Translations under genes and position numbers: made by a program | Notes under the pieces: model-generated | Told to the model about the DNA's origin: nothing | What the model saw: the letters and a program-made list of their open reading frames with translations, nothing else | The model's database searches: none | Shown: positions 1 through 11,356 of the stretch, piece by piece | Layout of the letters: every line of letters starts with the position of its first letter | Numbering within the stretch: position 1 is the stretch's first letter | NCBI GenBank assembly: GCA_039698055.1 | Contig: JBDKTL010000015.1 | Location: 1-11,356 of the forward strand | Direction of reading: 5' to 3' | DNA from: Methanoregula sp. | Lineage (GTDB): Archaea; Halobacteriota; Methanomicrobia; Methanomicrobiales; Methanospirillaceae | Length of the DNA: 11,356 bases

Positions 1-1
1 C

Positions 2-94
2 CGCATCAATAACGTCACGATCTACAATGCAAAATGGGAGATTGTAAAAGCTGCCATCGCGGACTATCTGGCTCATCCAAAATACACGCTCTAA
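2..94 (+). CDS. 3' end of a gene truncated by the window edge (RINNVTIYNAKWEIVKAAIADYLAHPKYTL*), product unknown
   Basis: Open frame from base 2 to TAA at 92-94 with protein-like composition, followed immediately by an oligo-T tract. Confidence 0.7.
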   Translation, partial: RINNVTIYNAKWEIVKAAIADYLAHPKYTL

Positions 95-101
95 TTTTTT
101 T
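95..101 (+). terminator. Oligo-T archaeal-type terminator
   Basis: T run directly after the TAA at 92-94. Confidence 0.5.
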
Positions 102-219
102 CTAGATCTTGTGCGTAAGTCCTATAAAAATATCGTATCAGGTTCAACAATCAGTTTGATAAAGACATTATCTGTTACAGTACTTTGAGAGAAATTCACA
201 TTTTTTAGAAAAGAGGACT

Positions 220-246
220 CCTGATATTAATTGTCAGGGTTTTTTT
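220..246 (+). terminator. Hairpin plus T7 tract, candidate terminator of an unannotated plus-strand transcript
   Basis: CCTGA(TA) 220-226 pairs with (TG)TCAGG 232-238, followed by T7 at 240-246. Confidence 0.35.
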
Positions 247-329
247 CTGGTGGTATTGTATGGTGATCCGTTTTTATATCCTTTAAAACGGGGGGGGAAT
301 TATTTGGGATGGGGCTTTTTCCTGCCTGA

Positions 330-407
330 TTACAGAGGCGGGAGGTTTTGAACAATTGCCTGGAGGATGGCAATGATAATTTTCAGGAACAGGGTCCAGT
401 CAAACAC
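330..407 (-). CDS. Small amphipathic/hydrophobic peptide, 25 aa (MFDWTLFLKIIIAILQAIVQNLPPL), GTG start
   Basis: Perfect SD GGAGGTGA (419-412) 4 nt before GTG, TATA box TTTAAATA at 461-454, helix-like periodicity of polar residues; too short for the ORF track. Confidence 0.7.
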   Translation of the reverse strand: MFDWTLFLKIIIAILQAIVQNLPPL

Positions 408-436
408 TCACTCACCTCCTGTCATACTCTTGACCG

Positions 437-461
437 ATAGTATCACATTATACTATTTAAA
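437..461 (-). promoter_or_regulatory. TATA box (TTTAAATA, 461-454) overlapped by inverted repeat ATAGTAT-N6-ATACTAT (437-456)
   Basis: Match to archaeal TATA consensus TTTAWATA; perfect 7-bp inverted repeat between the TATA box and the expected start site. Confidence 0.5.
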
Positions 462-554
462 CAATTCCCTTTTAAAATACAATACTCCTGAAGTTGGTTT
501 TCCTTTTTTACGCACACGGGCGTATGAAAAATAGGTTATCCCGGATATCCCAAG

Positions 555-1142
555 TCACGGGAAACTGGTTGGGTAAATCCCGGATTTTTGCAGGTTCCCA
601 TAGTACGTAATTGTCTCTGTGACGGTCTTTTCCATTGAGTATGTGGATGTCGTTTCGTTGACATACCTGATATCCGTCCACCGTTCACTGGGTTCAAGGA
701 CAAGTGTTTCATTGTTGTATTTCATATGAACCGACCCATCCACAGTAAATCCCTCGATTGTCAACGCATCAAAGGAACAGGGAAGTCCGTATCCCCCACG
801 AAGAATACTGGATGATCCTGTGCCCAAACTCCCTGAGATGCTCGTGCCTTTTCCGTAGACGATCATTAGTGACTCATTGATCTCAAACGGGACTATACCT
901 GCAAGATTACCTTTTGCGGTATCGAACCGGTATGTCGGCACATCGATCATAATGTCCGGGTAACTGCCATTGATGAGCCTGCCGTCGGCATATGTCTGAT
1001 GGTCGATGAAGGCATATTCGGTGGAAGCGGGCATTCCCGCGGGAGTTTTTTGGGACTGAATACATCCGCTTATCACAATAAGCATAAAGAAAAGGGCCAG
1101 TGCAGGAAGGATAAGGCAGAAACCACCCTTACGTTTATTCAC
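555..1142 (-). CDS. Putative lipoprotein, function unknown (probable GTG start at 1142 rather than 1211)
   Basis: Basic N-terminus NKRKGG, hydrophobic stretch, lipobox-like ISG|C, then a beta-rich domain with N-x-S/T sequons. Confidence 0.75.
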   Translation of the reverse strand: MNKRKGGFCLILPALALFFMLIVISGCIQSQKTPAGMPASTEYAFIDHQTYADGRLINGSYPDIMIDVPTYRFDTAKGNLAGIVPFEINESLMIVYGKGTSISGSLGTGSSSILRGGYGLPCSFDALTIEGFTVDGSVHMKYNNETLVLEPSERWTDIRYVNETTSTYSMEKTVTETITYYGNLQKSGIYPTSFP

Positions 1143-1338
1143 CTGCAGGAATGGATCGGCAGGGTTTTTCTCTCTTATGGCCGCAATAAAAAAAAATAAC
1201 CGCAAAACCATTTTTTAACCCGAACAGGGTTTCTGCAAAACCACTGCCCTGCGTCTTTATGCCTACATTAACAGGACACAATCTTCATGAGATAGCCTGC
1301 CAACCGGTGTATCATCCATATGTTCACGGTGAACCGGC

Positions 1339-1860
1339 ATGAGTGGCATGAATCTTGAAATTTTTGATGCAATGAATGACGCCGATAAACGCCAGTATCT
1401 TGAATTCCTGCTCTGGCATTACCGGGTCGTGGATGCATTCTGGTTTATCAATATCGCAGAACAGTACAGTCAGCCCGTCGCAGAGAAGATCAACGAACTG
1501 GTATGGGGACGTGTCGCTGGCATGGCGGCAAAAGATATCGTATCCCGGTTTTCCATTACGGAAAAAGGATTGCCCGGTTTTGTCAAAGCGCTCCGTCATT
1601 TTCCGTGGGCGATGATCGTCGGGTATGATATCGACGAACGGGGCAATGAAGTTATAATCTCGGTGCCATCCTGCCCGACACAGGAAGCACGGATCCGGCG
1701 GGGGCAGGGAGAATATGTCTGCCGCGAGATGCATCGTGCAGAATTTACCGGTTTTTCGCAGGCCATCGATCCCCGGATACGGGTCGAGTGCCGGTTTGCC
1801 CCTCCGGATCCCCACCCGGATGATATGTTTTGCCAGTGGCGTTTTTTCCTGGCGCCCTAA
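1339..1860 (+). CDS. DUF6125-like protein (V4R/ATC-hydrolase-like fold, probable metal binding)
   Basis: VDAFWF...E...N..VW N-terminal motif; CPTQEAR, CREMH, C..APPDPHP....CQW.F Cys/His pattern; GGTGA RBS upstream. Confidence 0.75.
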
Positions 1861-1902
1861 GAAAATAGGTGATTATGTAACGTCCACCAATTCACACGTA
1901 TC

Positions 1903-2190
1903 ATGGATTCATCACTGTTTGTTTTGCTCCCCGCACTCTATATCGTCGTTAATAGTATTGCGTTCCTTTCCTTCGCATATGACAAACACAAGACGCGGAA
2001 TAACGGGTGGCGGATTTCTGAAGGCACCTTGCTTGTCCTGGCATTTCTTGGGCCGTTTGGTGCCTATGGCGCGATGCTGATGTTCCGGCATAAAACCCGG
2101 AAGATCAAGTTTTACCTTGTGCCGCTCTTTCTCGTCCTGCATATCGTGGGGATGATCTATCTCGCCGCGATGGAATTGAACCTGATATAA
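1903..2190 (+). CDS. DUF1294 family small membrane protein
   Basis: Signature N..AF..FAYDK......WRISEGTL...AFLGPFGA..AM..FRHKTRK..F. Confidence 0.9.
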   Translation: MDSSLFVLLPALYIVVNSIAFLSFAYDKHKTRNNGWRISEGTLLVLAFLGPFGAYGAMLMFRHKTRKIKFYLVPLFLVLHIVGMIYLAAMELNLI

Positions 2191-2380
2191 TACAGACGTC
2201 TCTGGAGATCTAAAAAATTTAATTCAGGTTCGTTGATTCTGCCCAGGATATGAACCCCATAAGCCGGGTTTTAGATGAGAACTCTGGTTTTTTTATTGTT
2301 AAGTATGGCAGTTTCTCTTTAGGGGCTGTTAGATCAAACCACATCTCTTTAATACCGGCGTCTGCAATATTTTCCTTAAG

Positions 2381-2866
2381 ATGCGAACGAACAGGCACCA
2401 TTACTTCCTTGACCTTGCGCTGCGGTGTGCCCACCAAGGTACCTGCCTTCGGCGCAATTTCGGCGCTATCATTGTCGATGAATACAATACGATCGTCTCA
2501 ACCGGCTACACCGGGGCCCCCCGTAAACAGATGGATTGCACGGAACTGAACCGGTGCTGGCGAAAAGAGCATAATATCCCGTCGGGCTCCAACTACGAGC
2601 GGTGTCGGAGCGTCCATGCGGAAATGAACGCACTGCTCCAGGCGGGGAAGCAGGCGCGGGGATGTACCCTTTATCTTGCGGGTTTTGATGTCGAGACAGA
2701 AGAGCTGACCCAGATTTGGCCGTGCTTTTTGTGCTCGAAGATGATCGTGAATAGCGGGATTACCAACGTAATCATGCGGACAGCGCCAAGCGAGTACCGC
2801 GAGATGGATCCAATGGTGCTCTACCAGATGCGGAGCCGGGAATCCCTCGGGGAAGACATGCACTGA
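2381..2866 (+). CDS. dCMP deaminase (cytidine/deoxycytidylate deaminase family)
   Basis: TCLRR.FGAIIV, STGYTGAP, CRSVHAEMNAL and PCFLC zinc-binding motifs. Confidence 0.92.
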   Translation: MRTNRHHYFLDLALRCAHQGTCLRRNFGAIIVDEYNTIVSTGYTGAPRKQMDCTELNRCWRKEHNIPSGSNYERCRSVHAEMNALLQAGKQARGCTLYLAGFDVETEELTQIWPCFLCSKMIVNSGITNVIMRTAPSEYREMDPMVLYQMRSRESLGEDMH

Positions 2867-2937
2867 TGTGCATTCCCGCCTTCCCTGTTTTAGTTGCCGG
2901 CATTTGATTTCAGGAAAATTTCCCCGCTTCGATACGT

Positions 2938-3408
2938 ATGACCTTTACCTGCCGCCAGTGCGGAACCTGTTGCATGTATATGGGCGATTATATCGTGATC
3001 GAGCGCCAGATCGGCCCGTTTGAATTTTCGTGCTGCTCGGTGTCGACCGATACTCCTTTTATCGCCCGGGTTGATGAGGACAAACAGGAGATATTCTCAA
3101 ATTATTCGTTTCCGGACCAAAACCCATCTGCCTGCCGTTTTCTTCGCCCGGATGGTCCTCTTATACGGTGCACGATCCACCGGGACAGCCCCCCGCAATG
3201 CAAGTTCTACCGGTGCATCGTGATGAAGGTGTCGGATGCATCTGGTACCTTTTTAGGAACCGTAACCGGGACGCTGGCGCTGCACTCGGATGATCCCGAC
3301 CTGAGGCAAATGTGGGATGAAGCGAAGAAATGTATTCCTGAATCGTTGCCGGACTATGAGGAACGTCTCGGCTCGTATTTCGCGGAAAAGGGATACCGGG
3401 TGGAATGA
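2938..3408 (+). CDS. YkgJ family CxxCxxCC cysteine-cluster protein
   Basis: FTCRQCGTCC, ACRFL, CTIH...PPQCKFY.C motifs. Confidence 0.88.
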   Translation: MTFTCRQCGTCCMYMGDYIVIERQIGPFEFSCCSVSTDTPFIARVDEDKQEIFSNYSFPDQNPSACRFLRPDGPLIRCTIHRDSPPQCKFYRCIVMKVSDASGTFLGTVTGTLALHSDDPDLRQMWDEAKKCIPESLPDYEERLGSYFAEKGYRVE

Positions 3409-3590
3409 TCGTTTTTCACCGGCATCTTTTTGGATCTAACCCCCCGGATTCATCATCCATCGGAACAATGCTCACTTCACTCAGAAAACGACCCCAGCGA
3501 AGGAAAACGGGAGATCATGAAACGGAAACAGGATCGCCATTTTTATTTTCCTCTGGCCTATATGCAGAAGTGTAACCCGGAATCACTATC

Positions 3591-4493
3591 ATGTTTAACT
3601 ATCTCATCTGCCGGATTCTTCTGGTACTATCCTGCATCGCCCTTGCCAGTCTTGCCCTCCCCCTAGTATCGGCGGATTCACTGAACCCGACGGTCACCAC
3701 GGTATATTTTGAAAAAGACGGTGTCCCGTACCAAGAGAGTGTTTTTTTCACGGTGAATTGTTACGGGTACCGCTGTGACAATTACGATTGTTCGGCGCCC
3801 AAAATGATCGCTGGCTCCGCTGCATATGTGCCGGAGATCATCTTTTCCTATTCGGCAACCTGCCCGGGATATGGGTGCGTCATATACGAACCCTTTTACC
3901 TGAACTACCGGCATGTCGACCGGTGCGACCTGACCGGAGTTACACGCAACAGTAGTTTTCTCATTTCCCATTTCGCGGATACTCCCGTGCCGGACTGCGT
4001 CAATTTCCAGCAGTTCGAGATCGGGAGAGGGTACGATGAATACTACAACGGGACGCCAGAATACGATGAATGCGTGAATAAAACTTACCGGGAGTCAGAG
4101 ATCTGTGGCCAGTATCTTGCCGGGTGCAGCCCATCAACTGATACGGACTGCGGAAACTGGATTATAGATGATCGATACGTGAAGAAGACACCTGCCTACC
4201 GCTCCTGCATGGATACTGTCGACAAGAAAAGGAACAAGTGTTTTGCGTACCTGAAGAAAGTCGACACCGATTCAATGATCATGTGGAAGAATACTGTGTC
4301 AGGACAGGAAGAGCCGGCAATGCGAACCTGCGAACAGCATTTTATCATCCCTCCCGATGGAAATGTATCGCTTTCACCTTCAAAAAAACCGGATATCAAC
4401 CAGAGTGAACCAGTACAATCACCCTGTACCTGCAACAATCCCATTGAATATGCCTGGTGCACACTCCTGAACTTCTTTGGAATTGCCTGTTAA
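3591..4493 (+). CDS. Secreted cysteine-rich protein of unknown function
   Basis: Signal peptide ending VSA|D, 18 Cys in the mature part, Ser/Pro linker, C-terminal WCTLLNFFGIAC tail. Confidence 0.85.
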   Translation: MFNYLICRILLVLSCIALASLALPLVSADSLNPTVTTVYFEKDGVPYQESVFFTVNCYGYRCDNYDCSAPKMIAGSAAYVPEIIFSYSATCPGYGCVIYEPFYLNYRHVDRCDLTGVTRNSSFLISHFADTPVPDCVNFQQFEIGRGYDEYYNGTPEYDECVNKTYRESEICGQYLAGCSPSTDTDCGNWIIDDRYVKKTPAYRSCMDTVDKKRNKCFAYLKKVDTDSMIMWKNTVSGQEEPAMRTCEQHFIIPPDGNVSLSPSKKPDINQSEPVQSPCTCNNPIEYAWCTLLNFFGIAC

Positions 4494-4494
4494 C

Positions 4495-4839
4495 ATGCTG
4501 TATGAAACCAGATTCCTGTTAGCGCTCGTTACAACGTGGGCAATTGAGATCCCGGTATTGGTTGGGCTCATCCGGTTTCTGTTCCATCATAAAAAACTGC
4601 CATTAATACAAATCCTGTTCAGCGGCATACTTTGCACCGCACTCACCCTTCCCTACCTGTGGTTTGTCCTCCCGCCGTTTGTCGATGGGTCATACTATCC
4701 CTTTACAGGTGAGGTGCTTGTTGTCATTGTTGAAGCAGTAATCCTGAAAAGATTGCTGGGACTTGAATGGAAACAAGCAGGAACCTGTTCGCTTGTCATG
4801 AACGCGGTTTCATTTGGTGTTGGCCTGTTCATTCTTTAG
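4495..4839 (+). CDS. Small 4-TM membrane protein with Glu residues in or near the helices (probable start ATG 4495)
   Basis: Four hydrophobic segments; T..IE..V, LTLPYLW, GE..V..VE, S...N..S.G; starts 1 nt after the upstream stop. Confidence 0.85.
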   Translation: MLYETRFLLALVTTWAIEIPVLVGLIRFLFHHKKLPLIQILFSGILCTALTLPYLWFVLPPFVDGSYYPFTGEVLVVIVEAVILKRLLGLEWKQAGTCSLVMNAVSFGVGLFIL

Positions 4840-4906
4840 TCTGGATCTTATTTTCATCAAGGGATACCATCAGCAGGATTTTCTCATTCAAATACGGACG
4901 CTGATC

Positions 4907-5719
4907 ATGGATCCGCCGGAACACATCCACATCATCAGCGCTGGTGACACTATCCATAAAACCTATCCTGCCGTCATTAAGAATCTCCCGACAGTCACGC
5001 ACACGTTCATCTTTGCTGAAAAAGAGGTCTACATCAACTCGGCACGGGACGATACCAAGAAAAGAATGTGGAAGTGCGCCATCCGCGACGCGATTGATGC
5101 GGTGAATTCCATTTCCCAAAACCGGAAGATTTCCTGTGCGCTTGTCTGTATTGACTCGGCAACGTTTGACGCTATCCGGGATCCGGTGCTTGGGATATTC
5201 AGCGACTATCCGGATGCACGGTATTCATTTGATGTCTCCGCCGGGTCAAAACGCCTCTCTCTTGGCCTGTTCTCGATGTCGCTCTGGGTAGGCGGCGATT
5301 CATATTACGCATTCGGGGATTCCCCGATCCGTCGGGTTCCTGTCCCGGCATTCCCCATACTGCAACTTCCATCAAACCCCTATTACCTGATGATCCTCAC
5401 GATCCTCTTTCGTGGACTGGAAAACGGGAAGACTACGAGGACGCTGGTCCCAAGGGAGACCCTTTTTAATGAGACAAAAACCTGGCAGATACCCGCTTAC
5501 GACACGAGCGGGGGTCCGGGCCGAACCGAACTTTCCCCGGTGGCCTTTTCCTGTTTAATATCGACACTCATCGGCTGGAACCTTATCCGCGAGGAAACTG
5601 ATCCGGAAACCGGGGAGGAGAACCTGTACCAACTTACGCCGGATGGTGAACTGGCGTTATACGTGTATCTGGCCCGGTTGAAGAAGCGGGGTTTTAGGAA
5701 TGCACCGGGTCTTACGTGA
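4907..5719 (+). CDS. CARF-like Rossmann domain plus winged-helix regulator (DUF6293/Csa3-like), probable start ATG 4907
   Basis: N-terminal strand HIHIISAG, FDVSAGSK resembling the CARF [DN]xSxGxK motif, C-terminal wHTH ending L...NLI....YQLTPDGEL. Confidence 0.7.
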   Translation: MDPPEHIHIISAGDTIHKTYPAVIKNLPTVTHTFIFAEKEVYINSARDDTKKRMWKCAIRDAIDAVNSISQNRKISCALVCIDSATFDAIRDPVLGIFSDYPDARYSFDVSAGSKRLSLGLFSMSLWVGGDSYYAFGDSPIRRVPVPAFPILQLPSNPYYLMILTILFRGLENGKTTRTLVPRETLFNETKTWQIPAYDTSGGPGRTELSPVAFSCLISTLIGWNLIREETDPETGEENLYQLTPDGELALYVYLARLKKRGFRNAPGLT

Positions 5720-5818
5720 TGTACATTCGTCAAAAAAAAATAACAGGATCATATGAATAGGGCATTCTGCAAACGTCGAATGGTGTGATGACCAACGAAC
5801 CTGACAAAAAAAGAGTCT

Positions 5819-6619
5819 TTACTCCCCTTTCAGGGTCCGCTCGTCTTCTTCGATCCATTTCTCGAAATTCTGTATACCTTCCTTGATATCGTTTATCCGT
5901 CGTTCCGTTTCCGCTAACTGGGCGGTTGCCCGTGCCATCTTCTTCGGATCATCGCTGGTGGCAAGAAACCTGCGGATATGCGCTGCACTGAGCTGGAAAT
6001 TTTCAAGGGCAACGGCTGCTTTCCGGTACCGCTCAGTATTGAGTTTAAGATTCTTCTGGACGCGGGACACATTTTCTGCTTTTGGGTGTGGTTTCCCTGC
6101 GTTAAGTGTATCCCACAGGGCATCGTGAATTGTGCGGACCTTCTGGATCTGGTCAAAACTGGATTTTTTGTGTTTCGCCAGCATCTCATGCTTGTATTTC
6201 GCTAACAGTTCACTGGCAGTTTTCAGCGCCTGCCCGCGTTCAACCAGTCCATAGATATCCCGTGGCGGGGTATCGGCAGGGACCTGGGCCATTTCAACCT
6301 GTTTCATAATCTCTTCAAAATGACCACGGGATACAGATTCAAGGGTCCCGTATTCCGATTTCTGTTTCTCTTTTACTTCCCGGCACAGGGTGTTGAACTG
6401 CTTCCAGAGCAGCTCCCGGTCATCGTGGGCTAACGGTTTGAGTTCTTTGAATAACCCGGTAACCTGTTTTGCCTTATTCCAGAAATCCTGGTATTTGGTG
6501 ATGATCGGGAGGTTTGACCGGATCGGACCGGTTAATAATGACAGTTTTTTGATCTCACCTGCCAAGTGTTCTGCATTTTTATGAGCATTTACGAGCCAGG
6601 GATCATCTTCAGGTTTCAT
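5819..6619 (-). CDS. Helical/coiled-coil protein with a DUF349-like repeat
   Basis: FKELKPLAHDDRELLWKQFN resembles the DUF349 W/F..I.P......LW.RF repeat; long charged coiled coil at the C-terminus. Confidence 0.7.
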   Translation of the reverse strand: MKPEDDPWLVNAHKNAEHLAGEIKKLSLLTGPIRSNLPIITKYQDFWNKAKQVTGLFKELKPLAHDDRELLWKQFNTLCREVKEKQKSEYGTLESVSRGHFEEIMKQVEMAQVPADTPPRDIYGLVERGQALKTASELLAKYKHEMLAKHKKSSFDQIQKVRTIHDALWDTLNAGKPHPKAENVSRVQKNLKLNTERYRKAAVALENFQLSAAHIRRFLATSDDPKKMARATAQLAETERRINDIKEGIQNFEKWIEEDERTLKGE

Positions 6620-6868
6620 GGATCTTCTCTATGTTCACCGGCTATTGATCGGCTTATTTGTTTCTGCCCGGGTTTACTGCCTAAAAAGCAGTAGGGCAGG
6701 ATGTACTCAGGGAAAAATGCTTTTTTCCTCCAAAGAATTTCTCTGCGGTCCGTTTTATACGGATCCGCCAACAGAACCCGGCACTGTTCCGGAAGTACGA
6801 TGAGGTCAGTATCCACAACTCTACCACTCCAAAAAAACTATCCTCCCTCCCCGCCAAAATTTACCATA

Positions 6869-7687
6869 ATGATCCCCCAGCATGTCCCGGTTGTTCTCGT
6901 TCATGGCTGGCGTAGCCATCCTGGCATCTGGAACAGGCTTATACCACGGCTTAGTCACGAGGGGATCCCGTTCGGGAACTTCGATCACACCACCATGGAA
7001 GGTATGTCTGTCGCGGAGATTGCAACTGCATTGCAGGATTACATCTGCATGAAGCGGGAGGAAACAGGATATCAGGGCCAGATTGATATCGTCTGCCACT
7101 CGATGGGAGGAGGCATCGCCCGGTACCTGCTCGAAGTGCTGGATGGCACGGCCCGGCATGAGCAGGTACGGCAGCTCATCGCGATTGGGCCCCCAAATAA
7201 CGGGTCTGCCATGGCAGAACTCTTCAACCATCCGGTCCATGGCCCAAAAATCATTGCCCGTCTTACCAATGTATTTGTCCCCGAGGGATACAACCCGGCC
7301 GACGATATCATTGTGCAGGAATTCCGGCCGGGGAGCACGACCATGAGGTCACTTGCGGCGGCAGGAACCCGCAGGGATATCAGGTACCAGTTGATTCTTG
7401 CCGCAAACCCGTCAGCCGCGCCCGGATTTTTCCCGTGCTTTGAAGGCAGAACCTGGGAATCTGACGGTAATGGCAGCTGGCACCAGACCTGTGCGGGAGA
7501 CGGTATTGTTCCGCATTCGGAATCGGTCATTCCCGGTGCGGCTGTAGAAATCGTCCCTGCCGACCCCGCAGTACTCAGTTCATGTGGTGACCAGTACTGC
7601 CATATCAAACTGCCACGGAGTCCTGAAGTCGTGGACCGGGTGATGGATTTCCTGTTTAATTTTTCCAACTGCTCTTCTCAAATGTAA
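6869..7687 (+). CDS. Alpha/beta hydrolase (lipase/esterase-like), probable start ATG 6869
   Basis: PVVLVHGW oxyanion motif, CHSMGG nucleophile elbow, PPNNGS, DGIVP catalytic Asp, YCH catalytic His; no signal peptide. Confidence 0.9.
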   Translation: MIPQHVPVVLVHGWRSHPGIWNRLIPRLSHEGIPFGNFDHTTMEGMSVAEIATALQDYICMKREETGYQGQIDIVCHSMGGGIARYLLEVLDGTARHEQVRQLIAIGPPNNGSAMAELFNHPVHGPKIIARLTNVFVPEGYNPADDIIVQEFRPGSTTMRSLAAAGTRRDIRYQLILAANPSAAPGFFPCFEGRTWESDGNGSWHQTCAGDGIVPHSESVIPGAAVEIVPADPAVLSSCGDQYCHIKLPRSPEVVDRVMDFLFNFSNCSSQM

Positions 7688-7812
7688 TCGATGTTTATCG
7701 TTATATCCCCCGCGTCCCGGTGTGCCAGGTCTTTTCGGGGCTAAAAACCGGTCACAGAAAAAGCCAATAACCAGCAGGCGCAAGATAATAAAGAACTTTT
7801 TAAAGGTGAACT

Positions 7813-8226
7813 ATGGGAATTTTTGACAGATTGTCCGGAAAACCGGCAGAACTGAATCCGAAATCAGCACTCGTGCTCTCCGCTATCACCATTATCGCGG
7901 CAGACGGTGTGATCGATGAAGCAGAGCTCAATGACCTTGCAAAGATTGTCCGCGGAGACCGGAAATCCATCGACAATGCAATGGCGGTCATGAAGGCAAA
8001 CCCGTTCCCGGGTGTTATCGACCTCGTTGCAGCAAAACTCGACGAAAAGCAGAAAATAGCAACCCTCGCAATCCTCTGCGATCTTGCCATGGCAGACGGT
8101 GTTCTTGCCGGCGCGGAACAAAAAGTTCTCCAGATGTACATGGACAAGTTCGGGGTTTCCGAAGCAACCATGAAGCCGATCATTGACACAATCGCGGTCA
8201 AGAACGACTTTTCAATCTTCTCTTAA
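7813..8226 (+). CDS. terB: TerB family (tellurite resistance) protein
   Basis: Duplicated ADG....E motifs (AADGVIDEAE, MADGVLAGAE); GGTGA RBS at 7805-7809; T6 tract at 8228-8233. Confidence 0.85.
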   Translation: MGIFDRLSGKPAELNPKSALVLSAITIIAADGVIDEAELNDLAKIVRGDRKSIDNAMAVMKANPFPGVIDLVAAKLDEKQKIATLAILCDLAMADGVLAGAEQKVLQMYMDKFGVSEATMKPIIDTIAVKNDFSIFS

Positions 8227-8259
8227 CTTTTTTCCCGGTTGAACCGTGCCGGCTTTTTT

Positions 8260-8772
8260 CTATCCTGGCGTCACGGATCTTTTATACTCGTTATAGATTG
8301 ACACAATCGAGAGGCTGATGAGGTTTAAAGTTGTTCCCGCATACCAGAGCCAGGATTCCGTCACAGTGAGGCGGGTGATCCAGCCTGACCAGAGCATGAA
8401 ACAGATGAGGGTAAATGAGATCAGGGTGTCAATTGCAAGGAAGAGCATGGGCTTTTTGACGATTCGACCGATCAGGGCAAGGGTGCAGTATTCGAGCCGG
8501 TCGGGTTCATGGATGATATCAAAGACTGCCCGTTCCGCGTTCATGATCAGATCGATACCGGCCCACGCGACGATGATCCACCCGGTGACGGCAAGGGGAA
8601 AATTCGATGGCGTTCCTACGCGGATAGCGGCGAGCCCGAAAAGTGCCTTGTAGATGCAGAACGGGATGCCGATTGTGAAAGAAAGAAAAAACGGCCGGAT
8701 GAAAAACGACTGAATCCTGTCGTAGGGCTGCCTGGTTTCAGGTGGTATTTCTATATCTGGTTCCGATGACAT
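8260..8772 (-). CDS. Integral membrane protein (about 4-5 TM), function unknown
   Basis: 170-aa ORF with several hydrophobic helices, convergent with terB. Confidence 0.8.
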   Translation of the reverse strand: MSSEPDIEIPPETRQPYDRIQSFFIRPFFLSFTIGIPFCIYKALFGLAAIRVGTPSNFPLAVTGWIIVAWAGIDLIMNAERAVFDIIHEPDRLEYCTLALIGRIVKKPMLFLAIDTLISFTLICFMLWSGWITRLTVTESWLWYAGTTLNLISLSIVSIYNEYKRSVTPG

Positions 8773-8956
8773 GATAGCGGGATAACTGGAATTAATTTTT
8801 TTTAAGCAGTACCCGGTTCATCCAGAACGAAACCCGGGTGTTTTGCGATTACCAGTGTTAGGGAGCGAAAGGATAAGAACCGTTTTAGTGCGGGACAACA
8901 AAGATGGGTGAAATTGGTAATCTGCATACAGGTCCGGTGCCATGACCGGGCAACGA

Positions 8957-8963
8957 TTTATAG
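8957..8963 (+). promoter_or_regulatory. Candidate TATA box for a leaderless transcript of 8986..9309
   Basis: TTTATAG beginning 29 nt upstream of ATG 8986. Confidence 0.4.
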
Positions 8964-8985
8964 CGGTAATTCAAAAACACTGTCT

Positions 8986-9309
8986 ATGTCACCCAGACAT
9001 CAGCCCGCTCCGACGCCCCATAAGCATTCAGACCATAATCTTGGGGCCCATGACAACCCAGTCACCAGTCCGGATAAGGAACGCCATACGGAACTTCGGG
9101 CGCACCACCCGGAAGCGAATCCCGCTCCTCATGCCCCGCATCATCCACAGAGCAAGCCGGTACTTCCCCAACGGCACAATGCCCATACCGGACCGGAAGC
9201 CAAGGATCTGAACGTGGATCACGGCACGCATACAGACCGGCCACGACCGGCGAAGATCTCAAAAAAAGGGCAGAAAACCAAAGCTGAAAAATCGTGTCGC
9301 TTCCCGTGA
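8986..9309 (+). CDS. His/Pro-rich, probably disordered protein, 107 aa (probable start ATG 8986)
   Basis: 15 His and 17 Pro, basic C-terminus ending SCRFP, TATA at leaderless spacing; fills an otherwise empty gap. Confidence 0.6.
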   Translation: MSPRHQPAPTPHKHSDHNLGAHDNPVTSPDKERHTELRAHHPEANPAPHAPHHPQSKPVLPQRHNAHTGPEAKDLNVDHGTHTDRPRPAKISKKGQKTKAEKSCRFP

Positions 9310-9443
9310 GCACTTCTGTATGGTAAAAATGTTGGCAGTTTTGTAGCGGGCTTTCAGATATCACCTGCATGTCGGTGTGGAATTCAGATCGGGTTCCGAT
9401 GGATCGGAATTCACCATAAATGATATTTTTTTTACAAAAATTC

Positions 9444-10157
9444 TCACAACTCCCGCATCACCAGCGAGATCCCTCCGTCAAGCCCTGAAAAGAATTTCCG
9501 GCCATTAAAATAAAATGAATCATACGGGATGCTTCCGAGTGGCTGAAAGCCACATCGTTCAAAGGTATGGCACGAGACCGGGCTGGTACAGTCTGCGACG
9601 ATATGCCGGAAATCCCAATCCTTTGCATGGTCACAGATACGGTAGATGAGGTTCGTTGCGACAGCCTGTTTCCGGTAGTTGTCGCGGACGCCGATCTGGT
9701 AGATATGGAGTGTTGTTCCCGGTAGTGCCATGTCCATGGGCAGGTAGTTCTGTTCAAGTGCATCGATGATTGCGACGCTGTCAGGGAAGATTGAGAGAAA
9801 TTCAGCCATTTCCGGTTCAAGTGCAGAAATGTCGGTCGCCATATCGCAGCAGAGAATAAACCCGGCGCACTCCGATGAAGCAGTGTCTTCTGCGATGATG
9901 CTTAAGGATGCATCCGCGCAGTAATGCACATACCGCCGTGCATATCTGAAAAAAGTGTCCACATCGATTGTGTGCCGGCAGGTCATCGGTTCATCACGGA
10001 CAAAGACTTCCGTGTATGCCCGGGCTGTCGGCTCGACCCTGTCCACACTAAGAAGTGAGTATGTCACCGGGGCAATCATAACATTTTCCCGGGGATGGGC
10101 AGTGGTCTGTTCATGGCGGTTTGCTCTCTGGGGAATCCGGGTGTCATTACCTGTCAT
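9444..10157 (-). CDS. GNAT family N-acetyltransferase (alternative start ATG 10079)
   Basis: LHIYQIGVRDNYRKQAVA motif A, ADCTSPVS..TFERCGF motif B, FVRDEPM N-terminal motif. Confidence 0.85.
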   Translation of the reverse strand: MTGNDTRIPQRANRHEQTTAHPRENVMIAPVTYSLLSVDRVEPTARAYTEVFVRDEPMTCRHTIDVDTFFRYARRYVHYCADASLSIIAEDTASSECAGFILCCDMATDISALEPEMAEFLSIFPDSVAIIDALEQNYLPMDMALPGTTLHIYQIGVRDNYRKQAVATNLIYRICDHAKDWDFRHIVADCTSPVSCHTFERCGFQPLGSIPYDSFYFNGRKFFSGLDGGISLVMREL

Positions 10158-10252
10158 ATTCTGATCGTGAAATAGTGATACCTATGTCTGGAGATTACCA
10201 GAAACTATCGCGGTATATATCGATGTACCTTTTTATCGGGAAACCGGTGTCG

Positions 10253-11017
10253 TTACGATTCTCTCACCACTAAAAGACCTGCTGCCACTGCAAACACCGC
10301 CACTGCACTATCAAGCGGTATCCGTGGAGTCGGTGTTGTGGTTGGTACTGGCGACGATGTTACCGGTATGGGTGTGTCTGTCGGGGTACTTGGCACGGGA
10401 GTTGGGGTCGGAGTCGGCACGGTAATTTTTTTTGTCGGGCGGGTTGTGATGCTGTCGGTGGACACCGATCCCCGGGAAACACTCGGTGAGCCGTACTGCA
10501 CCAGAAGGGAATCATTATTCACGGAAGTGGGATTTTCTACCTTTACGGAAAAGGATCGCTCGGCAGTATTGATAGAGGTCTGGAATGCGACAACTGCCCG
10601 GCCGGTACTGTCGGTGGTCACGAGTGCGTAATAATTGGTATTTGACATCGAAGCGGACGAGGGGGTCACATCATCGAGAATTGTCTGCCCGTTTCCATTG
10701 TTGAACGCATAGGAACCGATCGTATACGGTCCACCTGACGGGTCTTTCTGTACATTTGCCTGGTAATCGACAATAACCGGTGGCTGATCGCCAAGTGCTC
10801 CGGAAAGCGACCATGTATGGGTCAGCCACGTGTAATAGCCGGTGTTGGGGATGCCGGTTATCGTAATCGCGAACTGGTGACCACGGACAAGCGGCTGATT
10901 TCCTGCCAGATCAGATGTCGCGGAGGTAGCAGCAGCGGGCATAAAAAGTATGGTGCTGCCGATCACCAGCAGGAAAACGGTAAGCACAATATTGCAGGTA
11001 TTCATAGGAGTCCTCAT
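10253..11017 (-). CDS. Cell-surface (S-layer-like) glycoprotein with Thr/Pro linker and C-terminal membrane anchor
   Basis: Signal peptide (PAAA|), beta-rich domain, PTPTPTP linker, PRIPL followed by a TM helix and RES. Confidence 0.85.
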   Translation of the reverse strand: MRTPMNTCNIVLTVFLLVIGSTILFMPAAATSATSDLAGNQPLVRGHQFAITITGIPNTGYYTWLTHTWSLSGALGDQPPVIVDYQANVQKDPSGGPYTIGSYAFNNGNGQTILDDVTPSSASMSNTNYYALVTTDSTGRAVVAFQTSINTAERSFSVKVENPTSVNNDSLLVQYGSPSVSRGSVSTDSITTRPTKKITVPTPTPTPVPSTPTDTPIPVTSSPVPTTTPTPRIPLDSAVAVFAVAAGLLVVRES

Positions 11018-11079
11018 GTGTACTGACTGATTAGGATGATGCTTGACATCATTTCCACATAAACATATGCTTGGTACCG

Positions 11080-11356
11080 GGTGCCGTCAGGATAAAAAAT
11101 TAGGTGATTGAGTAAAGTCCACCACTAACCTGAAGGAAGGGTGGATGAAATGAGAAGTATGAATTTTCGGGATATTGGGAGGTTGGTATCCGAAGACCAA
11201 CACTCCCTGGAATATCTCTGGAGAAAACGGGGGGGGTCCAGTATGTCCATCATGCAATTCCCCGGATTTTTACTATCTGAAACGTTCGAGGGTTCGGTGC
11301 AAACGGTGCGGTAAGGATCATTATCCTCTCAAAGGAACCCGGTTTACCGAACTTCG
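11080..11356 (+). mobile_element. Left end of an IS1595-family insertion sequence (left boundary tentative, truncated by the window)
   Basis: Transposase zinc-ribbon N-terminus; GGTGCCGT at 11080 loosely resembles IS1016-group GGGGCTG ends; the partner end is not in the window. Confidence 0.6.
11150..11356 (+). pseudogene. IS1595-family transposase N-terminus, frameshifted at G8 (11229-11236)
   Basis: MRSMNFRDIGRLVSEDQHSLEYLWRKR, then in the +1 frame GPVCPSCNSPDFYYLKRSRVRCKRCGKDHYPLKGTRFTEL (CPxC...CxxC...GTxF); the unshifted frame stops at 11312-11314. Confidence 0.8.

Follow-up and report, generated by a model that had tools for sequence, protein, structure and literature searches.

Peptide gene and its transcription unit

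The DNA analysed here comes from a Methanoregula sp. (GenBank assembly GCA_039698055.1, contig JBDKTL010000015.1, positions 1 to 11,356 of the forward strand, hereafter the window), and the subject of this work is a short gene on its minus strand that encodes a peptide of 25 residues. The open reading frame (ORF) occupies 330..407, begins with GTG, runs for 25 codons to a TAA stop at 332..330 and encodes MFDWTLFLKIIIAILQAIVQNLPPL. In the direction of transcription, the TATA box TTTAAATA (461..454) is followed after 34 nt by the Shine-Dalgarno (SD) sequence GGAGGTGA (419..412), the 4-nt spacer GTGA (411..408) and the coding sequence GTG TTT GAC TGG ... CTG TAA. The GTG frame, the SD with its spacer and the TATA box are thus all found where an initial annotation of this DNA had placed them. 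The gene occupies a gap of 460 nt, bordered on one side by an ORF of 218 amino acids (aa) on the same strand (555..1211) and on the other by a repeat at 1-124.

The TATA box is of the archaeal type, lies 54 nt 5' of the start codon and is preceded by an A-rich stretch resembling a B recognition element (BRE). The distance between TATA box and transcription start is an established property of archaeal promoters, and by this position rule transcription is predicted to begin at the CA at 431 on the minus strand, approximately 26 nt from the centre of the box, which would leave a leader of 24 nt. A perfect 7-nt inverted repeat (ATAGTAT / ATACTAT, 437..456, minus strand) lies between the TATA box and this predicted start; it is a possible candidate operator and is not kept as such in relatives. 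At the other end of the gene, a hairpin (320..343, minus strand; 343-341 pairing with 322-320 and 339-336 with 327-324) encloses the stop codon, with a folding energy of -9.1 kcal/mol and a z score of -3.2 against mononucleotide shuffles. It is followed by the run C8-G-T4 (297..285), which sits inside the inverted repeat CCGTTTT (291..285) / AAAACGG (274..268) and is likely an oligo-T termination signal, the whole putative terminator spanning 268..297 on the minus strand. The best explanation of this arrangement is that 461 to about 285 on the minus strand forms a complete monocistronic archaeal transcription unit.

Conservation of the gene in relatives

When this genome is taken by itself, the signals of the peptide gene are not beyond chance. 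The sequence GGAGGTGA occurs 68 times on the two strands, compared with 72.7 occurrences expected from base composition, and an NTG codon follows within 3-9 nt in 33 of these 68 cases. Ten of those 33 open ORFs of 15-59 aa, which is the point in favour of regarding the gene as a chance ORF beside chance signals. Among the genes of this genome its SD is exceptional, with the full 8-mer preceding just 2 of 1380 crude long ORFs. An SD of five letters or more precedes 13% of the long ORFs, and the share at a control position inside them is 3%, which shows that this organism does make use of SD-led initiation. Single-genome statistics of this kind are insufficient, and the gene is accepted as real because it is conserved in relatives.

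Window 150-1211 was used as a DNA query against 40 relatives, namely 24 genomes of the same genus and 16 of other genera. Eight matching places were found in six of the 24 same-genus genomes, all of them on window 321-420, which corresponds to the SD and ORF, with 76-85% identity; the 16 genomes from other genera gave no match. The adjoining 218-aa gene was matched a single time, weakly, in a seventh same-genus genome, and the SD and ORF are the sole conserved portion of the intergenic region in relatives. The reading frame is intact at all eight places. Comparison of nine sequences gave a ratio of nonsynonymous to synonymous differences (pN/pS) between 0.03 and 0.63 in all 36 pairs, and the window differs from one relative (L012) with a pS of 0.78 and a pN of 0.02. 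The sense frame is free of stops in all 41 short orthologous loci, in contrast to the other five frames, which contain stops in 9-38 of the 41. Synonymous positions are saturated across the family, and the codon of the conserved Ala13 takes all four forms (GCA 18, GCG 17, GCT 5 and GCC 2).

Relatives therefore keep the frame and, in all 42 loci of the family described below, the SD, while changing mostly at synonymous positions. The view in the initial annotation of the ORF as a real protein-coding gene with expression signals of its own is borne out by this comparative conservation, which, on the grounds of sequence comparison, establishes the peptide gene as protein-coding and under purifying selection. 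The chance-ORF explanation is opposed by every line of the comparative evidence (conservation limited to SD and ORF, pN/pS, spread of the family, codon saturation and the open frame) and deserves next to no credence; we consider it already refuted by the conservation pattern.

One codon departs from the free use of synonyms. Leu15 (window 365..363) is written CTC in 37 of 39 Leu codons, while the genome-wide shares are 0.31 for CTC, 0.30 for CTG and 0.27 for CTT, and unlike Leu8, for which six codons are used in the same family sequences. This bias amounts to an unexplained synonymous constraint. The CCTCC created by the CTC at Leu15 is complementary to the SD, and this pairing is not predicted in the subfamily to which the window belongs.

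A peptide family confined to Methanomicrobiales

The members of the family were taken from loci L010-L076 by the pattern xFDWxxF, by which members lacking the pattern would be missed. This yielded 42 distinct loci encoding peptides of the form MFDW..LP, with 24-26 residues in length and one read-through variant of 37 residues. The family consensus is MFDWAxFLKIIIAILQAIxQNLPxx, in which F2, D3, W4, F7, L8, A13, L15, Q16, I18, L22 and P23 are invariant or nearly so. On the basis of residues 9 and 10 we divided the loci into subfamilies A (K9; 22 loci, including that of the window), B (N9; 14 loci) and C (N9, L10; 6 loci). Distant members in other genera keep MFDW and mostly keep LP, and carry Glu or Lys at positions 13, 16, 19 and 20.

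With a profile of nine peptides, the family was detected in 50 of 108 genomes of the genus (32 of the 50 high-quality ones) and in 49 of 301 genomes of the order, which belong to 6 of 43 genera. A profile of 46 peptides, applied to a phylum sample of 401 genomes, found it in 13, all within three families (f1, f4 and f5) of its own order, and no member was found in the other families of that sample. A degenerate-pattern scan of 185,579 species genomes confirmed 27 loci, all in records titled Methanoregula, Methanoregulaceae or Methanomicrobiales; the assignment of the DNA to an archaeal host of the Methanomicrobiales agrees with every one of these 27 named records. The genome of the window has one copy, and its relatives have one to three dispersed copies per genome. 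A single tandem pair was found, in genome G175, where the second copy is a divergent variant.

Library searches placed the peptide in no known family. Pfam gave no matching family, PADLOC and PHROGs gave no match for the window peptide, and NCBIfam returned for it only a sub-threshold hit to 'smalltalk' (12.9 bits, cut-off 24.7); for one paralogue NCBIfam gave a sub-threshold hit to TisB_tox (14.4 bits, cut-off 38). No plasmid matched the peptide family, and the phage search led only to one Synechococcus phage, in two records with E=7, which we took as noise. A search of 1.84 billion representative proteins gave 21 matches with E values of 0.001 or better. Three of these are calls of 25 aa, and of the other 18, 16 are longer frames ending with the family motif, mostly extended 5' through the SD, while P0003 and P0015 start with the motif and continue 3' of it. 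A collection of about 15 billion predicted proteins does not contain the exact window peptide, and the nine relatives checked are unnamed or called 'hypothetical protein'. With the 37-aa orthologue as query, the best scores in the ESM Atlas were 0.77 and 0.75, below the stated noise level. A full-text literature search with the core string of the peptide gave no match, which, together with the absence of a library family, upholds the earlier statement that nothing comparable has been described for archaea. Judged from these searches, the peptides are an undescribed, Methanomicrobiales-restricted family of 24-27 residues with a single predicted helix.

A related, longer frame of the form ..LLDW(V/G)T(S/P)INILIA(V/A)LQAI..(N/K)LPDNNIR.. 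was observed in L082 (G038), L086 (G253) and L077:1345-1392 (G175), in the last case roughly 400 nt 3' of a genuine member of the family. No ATG, GTG or TTG is available in frame as a start, and the frame may represent a paralogue that has diverged, a pseudogene or an RNA element.

Expression signals and transcript evidence

Comparison of the loci demonstrates that the promoter and SD are conserved as sequence elements. In subfamily A, 20 of 22 loci have a TATA-like 8-mer (6/8 or better) 48-62 nt upstream, as do all six C loci and 1 of 14 B loci; a control window 20-34 nt upstream gave 3/22 (A), 1/6 (C) and 6/14 (B). The B loci share a longer conserved upstream block in place of the TATA box; in this subfamily (e.g. 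L010, L022, L029, L033, L041 and L045) the conserved block TTTTTTTCACTCATCGCCAG was noted about 75 nt upstream of the start. The SD 8-mer, either GGAGGTGA or a one-letter variant, stands 4-8 nt 5' of the start in all 42 loci. The palindrome TACTGTWACAGTA, located in L014 between the TATA box and the transcription start and present in a two-mismatch copy at window 171-184, was dropped as a chance occurrence: it is found in 5 of the 42 family promoters at up to three mismatches and 21 times genome-wide at up to two.

Start codons divide along the same lines. All 20 B and C loci start with ATG, and subfamily A has CTG in 12 loci, TTG in five, ATG in four and GTG in one. The CTG codons occupy the start position behind a consensus SD (L014, L034, L036, L037, L040, L046, L048, L058, L059, L062, L063 and L064), and CTG was also found there in L077 (G175) and L081 (G341). 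The CTG loci checked by hand have no canonical in-frame start upstream. CTG persists even where identity between the flanking ileS fragments has dropped to 75%, and so represents a lasting state as opposed to a recent lesion. For Haloferax, ribosome profiling has been reported to show near-cognate initiation (PMC7261190). If translation is confirmed, the family would be a natural case of long-term CTG/TTG (CUG) initiation behind a consensus SD in archaea.

At the 3' side, subfamily A shares a C-rich stretch and a T-run 30-45 nt 3' of the stop codon, of which the C8-G-T4 is the counterpart in the window. The stem enclosing the stop codon is part of the minimum free energy structure in 36 of 41 loci, with a mean z of -1.68 and values below -2 in 16 of the 41. 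RNAalifold gave no consensus for it across the family, and fixed columns showed no covariation (66.8% paired versus 69.4% in shuffles). On the per-sequence folds, the hairpin is plausible, not proven.

RNA data came from one of 23 runs, X16, a metatranscriptome that belongs to the study of the probable source sample. On window 1-1500 it gave two contigs only, one of 435 nt over repeat positions 1-102 and one of 167 nt over 252-416 (strand unassigned), the latter with 0 differences and a depth of 2.7. No cover was found over 417-1500, including the adjacent 218-aa gene, and such lack of cover proves nothing about silence. The 167-nt contig would agree with the peptide gene being expressed as a short, abundant transcript, with DNA carry-over as another possible source. 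It extends to 252, past the putative terminator at 297..285, and at its other end stops at 416, short of the predicted transcription start at 431. A promoter and terminator scan placed a terminator-like hairpin of 8 pairs followed by T7 at 219..247 on the plus strand, pointing at the peptide gene in convergent orientation; it could end a convergent transcript in strains free of the insertion sequence (IS)-like repeat, or work bidirectionally. Two independent DNA runs, X3 and X4, show no change in 330-407, and their contigs diverge from the window left of base 125.

Neighbours of the family

In subfamily A the gene lies tail-to-tail with ileS in 18 of 22 loci and has Thg1 upstream on the same strand in 11 of 22, a housekeeping neighbourhood that indicates vertical inheritance. 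In the genome of the window ileS lies inside another contig (C43), so that the tail-to-tail arrangement is broken while the peptide gene is intact. At 5 of the 14 B loci the peptide gene precedes one for a zinc-ribbon / DUF4352 protein, and three of the six C loci lie beside a convergent pair of a DrrA-like ABC ATPase and an ABC-2 permease.

Predicted structure of the peptide

AlphaFold2 (AF2), run on the family alignment with the natural 37-aa read-through orthologue as first row, gave one helix over residues 4-21, with a predicted local distance difference test score (pLDDT) of 93 over residues 1-20. The peptide is thus predicted to be a single alpha-helix, 4-21, ending at the invariant Leu-Pro. 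Twelve of the 15 residues at positions 6-20 (LFLKIIIAILQAIVQ) are Ile, Val, Leu, Phe or Ala. Over residues 2-22 the mean Eisenberg hydrophobicity is 0.56, and the hydrophobic moment is 0.325 compared with 0.187 for shuffled sequences.

On a helical wheel at 100 degrees per residue, T5 (40 degrees), K9 (80), A13 (120), Q16 (60) and Q20 (100) fall within an arc of 80 degrees, which agrees with the initial annotation, where these residues had been assigned to one helical face. The same face is conserved in the 46 aligned peptides. Position 9 is K in 24, N in 21 and S in one; position 13 is A in 43, Q in two and E in one; position 16 is Q in 42, K in two and A in two; and position 20 is Q in 24, H in 12, S in four, E in four and another residue in two. 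The argument for a polar stripe rests on this conservation, because the moment of the single sequence is not significant. A hydrophobic helix with Lys or Asn, Gln and Gln or His on one face is expected for a transmembrane helix that packs on other helices.

Possible function

With confidence slightly above even, we favour a reading in which the gene product is a small integral membrane peptide and works via its polar stripe, either on itself or on a partner. The helix would insert as a single span into the cytoplasmic membrane, where the stripe of K/N9, A13, Q16 and Q/H20 would contact other helices, either of its own copies or of a larger membrane protein. The peptide would then be a small membrane regulator or accessory subunit and not an enzyme or soluble factor. 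In the subfamily of the window, translation would be governed by a maximal SD in combination with a weak start, which is GTG here and CTG or TTG in the majority of relatives. Small single-span membrane proteins are a functional class and not a homology family, defined by a translated ORF below 50-70 aa that is in essence one transmembrane helix; for the peptide, coding is indicated by selection and the helix is predicted by AF2. 'Small membrane regulator', which the initial annotation had given as a fallback, accordingly comes first in our ranking of the readings.

Several observations weigh against this assignment. Of the 50 high-quality genomes of the genus, 18 lack the family, and one copy has an internal TGA, so the family is dispensable. 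No neighbour gene common to all three subfamilies was found, and no partner was identified. Evidence for expression comes from one low-depth X16 contig, obtained in the same study as the probable source and perhaps representing DNA. By itself the sequence is only mildly amphipathic, as 8.6% of 2000 shuffles reach its hydrophobic moment; within the family, only 12 of the 46 members come out below 5%. The earlier description of the peptide as amphipathic thus holds for its narrow, conserved polar face and not for the moment of the sequence taken singly. Moreover, the most distant members carry charges at the stripe positions; helices with such an E/K stripe would be poor monomeric transmembrane helices and would suit an interfacial or oligomeric peptide and the rival explanations equally well.

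The most serious of these rivals, which we consider unlikely on balance, is the type I toxin-like peptide proposed in the initial annotation. The helix would oligomerise in the membrane and dissipate its potential when synthesis rises, synthesis being otherwise held down by antisense RNA, mRNA structure or, in the subfamily of the window, near-cognate starts. Type I toxins are described, in the accessible text of Fozo et al. (2010, PMC2887945), as proteins of fewer than 60 aa with a predicted transmembrane stretch in which at least 10 of 15 residues are I, V, L, F, C, M or A, and the peptide fits this class in size (25 aa), hydrophobicity (12 of 15 at residues 6-20) and single helix. Multiple or tandem copies are frequent among such toxins in the same account (PMC2887945), and the family has, beside the single copy in this genome, the one to three dispersed copies of the relatives and the tandem pair in G175. 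The gene is free-standing in a long intergenic region, and 18 of 22 subfamily A starts are CTG, TTG or GTG despite a perfect SD. One paralogue has the sub-threshold TisB_tox hit given above, and a local likeness to the E. coli toxin ShoB was found in pairwise BLASTP, with 8/11 identities for the window peptide (E 6e-4) and 9/12 for that of L036 (E 3e-4); when this genome was searched with ShoB, the peptide ranked first (E 0.11) among 62,486 six-frame frames. In subfamily B, a predicted hairpin would hide both SD and start codon, with a probability of SD pairing of 0.90 versus 0.76 in shuffles and a mean z of -1.06. The partners within this hairpin are codons 14-16 (CCTCC) for the SD, with a probability of 0.94-0.98 in 8 of 14 loci, codons 12-13 for GCGA and codons 9-10 for the start codon. 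Paralogues may, by these folds, be regulated differently between subfamilies. In subfamily A, however, this pairing probability is 0.79 versus 0.80 in shuffles (0.87 versus 0.85 for the window), and the predicted transcript of the window has a z of -0.14, with 87 of 200 shuffles folding at least as well. A translation-inert, highly structured mRNA with a sequestered SD is typical of hok, tisB and others. An antisense TATA box (7/8 or better) within 140 nt after the stop was found in 4 of 42 loci, compared with 9 of 42 in the sense-strand control, a count that a non-canonical or distant antisense promoter or convergent read-through would escape; one plus-strand candidate, at window 271-281, is present here, is not conserved and was rejected. 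The C-termini (..QNLPPL/M, ..HVLPAA and ..QHLPYA) lack a charged or bulky cluster, the last five residues of the window peptide including no Lys, Arg, Asp or Glu, although such a C-terminus is reported as frequent and not universal in type I toxins (PMC2887945). The likeness to ShoB is post hoc, short, compositionally biased and not reciprocal, since the family profile, searched in the E. coli K-12 chromosome, gave one place at E 0.27 that is not shoB. By NCBIfam and Pfam thresholds, the peptide belongs to none of the toxin families TisB, ShoB, Ldr/Fst, Ibs and Hok. The stable housekeeping neighbourhood and the absence from plasmids and phages also speak against a toxin, a weak point as chromosomal type I loci are stable too. 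The specific toxin label is consequently not sustained: no conserved antisense promoter, no SD sequestration in the subfamily of the window, no unusually structured transcript and no charged C-terminus was found for it. An elaborated version, which we regard as improbable, would make the family the first archaeal type I-toxin-like depolarising peptides, their dose throttled by a near-cognate CUG/UUG/GUG start behind a maximal SD in one subfamily and by the SD/start hairpin in another, with no obligatory antisense RNA; the ShoB-like K-IIIA-[IV]-LQ core would then be a convergent pore-lining stripe.

Two further explanations carry very little weight. The peptide could be released, as a surfactant resembling phenol-soluble modulins (PSMs) or an archaeocin-like antimicrobial, after export by an ABC system without a signal peptide. 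It is short, has no signal peptide and forms a predicted helix with a polar face, distant members with their E/K stripe are clearly amphipathic, and half of the subfamily C loci lie beside the ABC ATPase and ABC-2 permease. That transporter, however, is convergent, limited to three of six loci of one subfamily and nowhere near the gene of the window; the peptide is far more hydrophobic than amphipathic (0.56 versus a moment of 0.33), no conserved immunity or processing gene lies nearby, and Pfam gave no match to a peptide-toxin or bacteriocin family. We hold release to be very improbable. Still slimmer is the chance that the main product is the RNA of about 150 nt, a regulatory or dual-function small RNA (sRNA) that might pair with the convergent ileS transcript at its 3' end, with the peptide as a secondary product. 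The weak starts of subfamily A, the near-fixed CTC at Leu15, the stop-enclosing hairpin and the tail-to-tail arrangement with ileS would all suit such an RNA, and sRNAs that encode small proteins have precedents in Methanosarcina mazei, as reported in the available part of a preprint (bioRxiv 10.1101/2025.10.28.685009). Against it stand the strong purifying selection on amino acids with saturated synonymous sites, the absence of any Rfam family in the window, the hairpin without covariation, and the intact peptide gene in a genome whose ileS lies on another contig. The small membrane peptide acting through its polar stripe is retained as the preferred reading.

Comparison with known small proteins

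The closest resemblance to a known toxin is that to E. coli ShoB, a 26-aa type I toxin of the shoB-ohsC locus. The two peptides are similar in length and share a Lys-x3-Ala-x2-Gln core (ShoB residues 12-23 being the aligned part) as well as the form of a single hydrophobic helix, and both genes are free-standing between unrelated genes. The N- and C-terminal parts of ShoB are unrelated to the peptide, the two come from different domains of life, and ShoB has a divergent sRNA (ohsC, annotated beside it), whereas no antisense or neighbouring sRNA is evident for the peptide gene. With a genome-scale E of 0.11 and a reciprocal profile search that misses shoB, no homology can be claimed. TisB resembles the peptide more loosely, in length and single hydrophobic helix.

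Probably the nearest archaeal analogue in kind, likened by description and not by sequence, is sP24 (spRNA24/asRNA94) of M. mazei. As described in the accessible portion of the preprint (bioRxiv 10.1101/2025.10.28.685009), sP24 is a small protein of a methanogen with one predicted transmembrane helix and a short independent transcript, in which it is like the peptide, and it enters lipid bilayers in vitro. For sP24 an antisense RNA has been demonstrated, whereas there is no sign of one at the peptide gene. sP24 also shows a phenotype under salt stress and is reported there as specific to M. mazei strains, while the peptide family spans several genera of Methanomicrobiales. The same source includes the bacterial single-span proteins YohP (27 aa) and Prli42 (31 aa), which share with the peptide a length below 50 aa, one helix, the lack of a signal peptide and their omission from annotation (bioRxiv 10.1101/2025.10.28.685009). 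Bacterial small single-span proteins have no sequence relationship to the peptide; they bind larger membrane complexes or respond to stress, and those with a partner are usually encoded in or near its operon, in contrast to the peptide family, which has no constant neighbour. KdpF and AcrZ are further small single-span membrane proteins of bacteria. The PSMs and delta-toxin of staphylococci, like the peptide, are helices of 20-26 aa with a polar face and no signal peptide. The PSMs differ in being strongly amphipathic and in relying on a dedicated ABC system for export; the peptide is mostly hydrophobic, and an ABC-2 transporter adjoins the gene only at three of the six subfamily C loci, in convergent orientation.

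Archaeal small proteomes are barely charted and proteins of fewer than 30 residues are almost never annotated. In methanogens, few small membrane proteins come with functional data, as stated in the consulted portion of the preprint (bioRxiv 10.1101/2025.10.28.685009). The coding status of the present gene rests on 42 loci under purifying selection, a conserved promoter and SD and a hint of in situ transcription, and it offers a concrete small membrane peptide candidate in hydrogenotrophic methanogens, which are environmentally important. Type I toxins are reported to be known to date from no more than a few bacterial phyla (PMC12390103); the toxin reading, if true, would extend type I-like toxins to archaea.

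Other features of the window

The end of the IS-like repeat (1..124, plus strand) lies 205 nt beyond the peptide stop codon and outside the gene. The same 124 bases (121 in two cases) recur at 11 contig ends of the genome, and X3 and X4 are without the repeat at this site. It holds the last 30 codons of an ORF at 2..94 on the plus strand, which has no Pfam match. No tRNA and no Rfam family was found in the window.

The 218-aa ORF (555-1211, minus strand) belongs to no Pfam, NCBIfam, PADLOC or PHROG family, and relatives do not keep it next to the peptide gene. Its product has an N-terminal hydrophobic stretch ending in ..VISGC, which is lipobox-like. It is one of seven ORFs of 133-301 aa in the window without a Pfam family. 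Between 1339 and 11017, Pfam identified a DUF6125 protein, a DUF1294 protein, a cytidine/dCMP deaminase, an alpha/beta hydrolase, a TerB-domain protein and a GNAT acetyltransferase.

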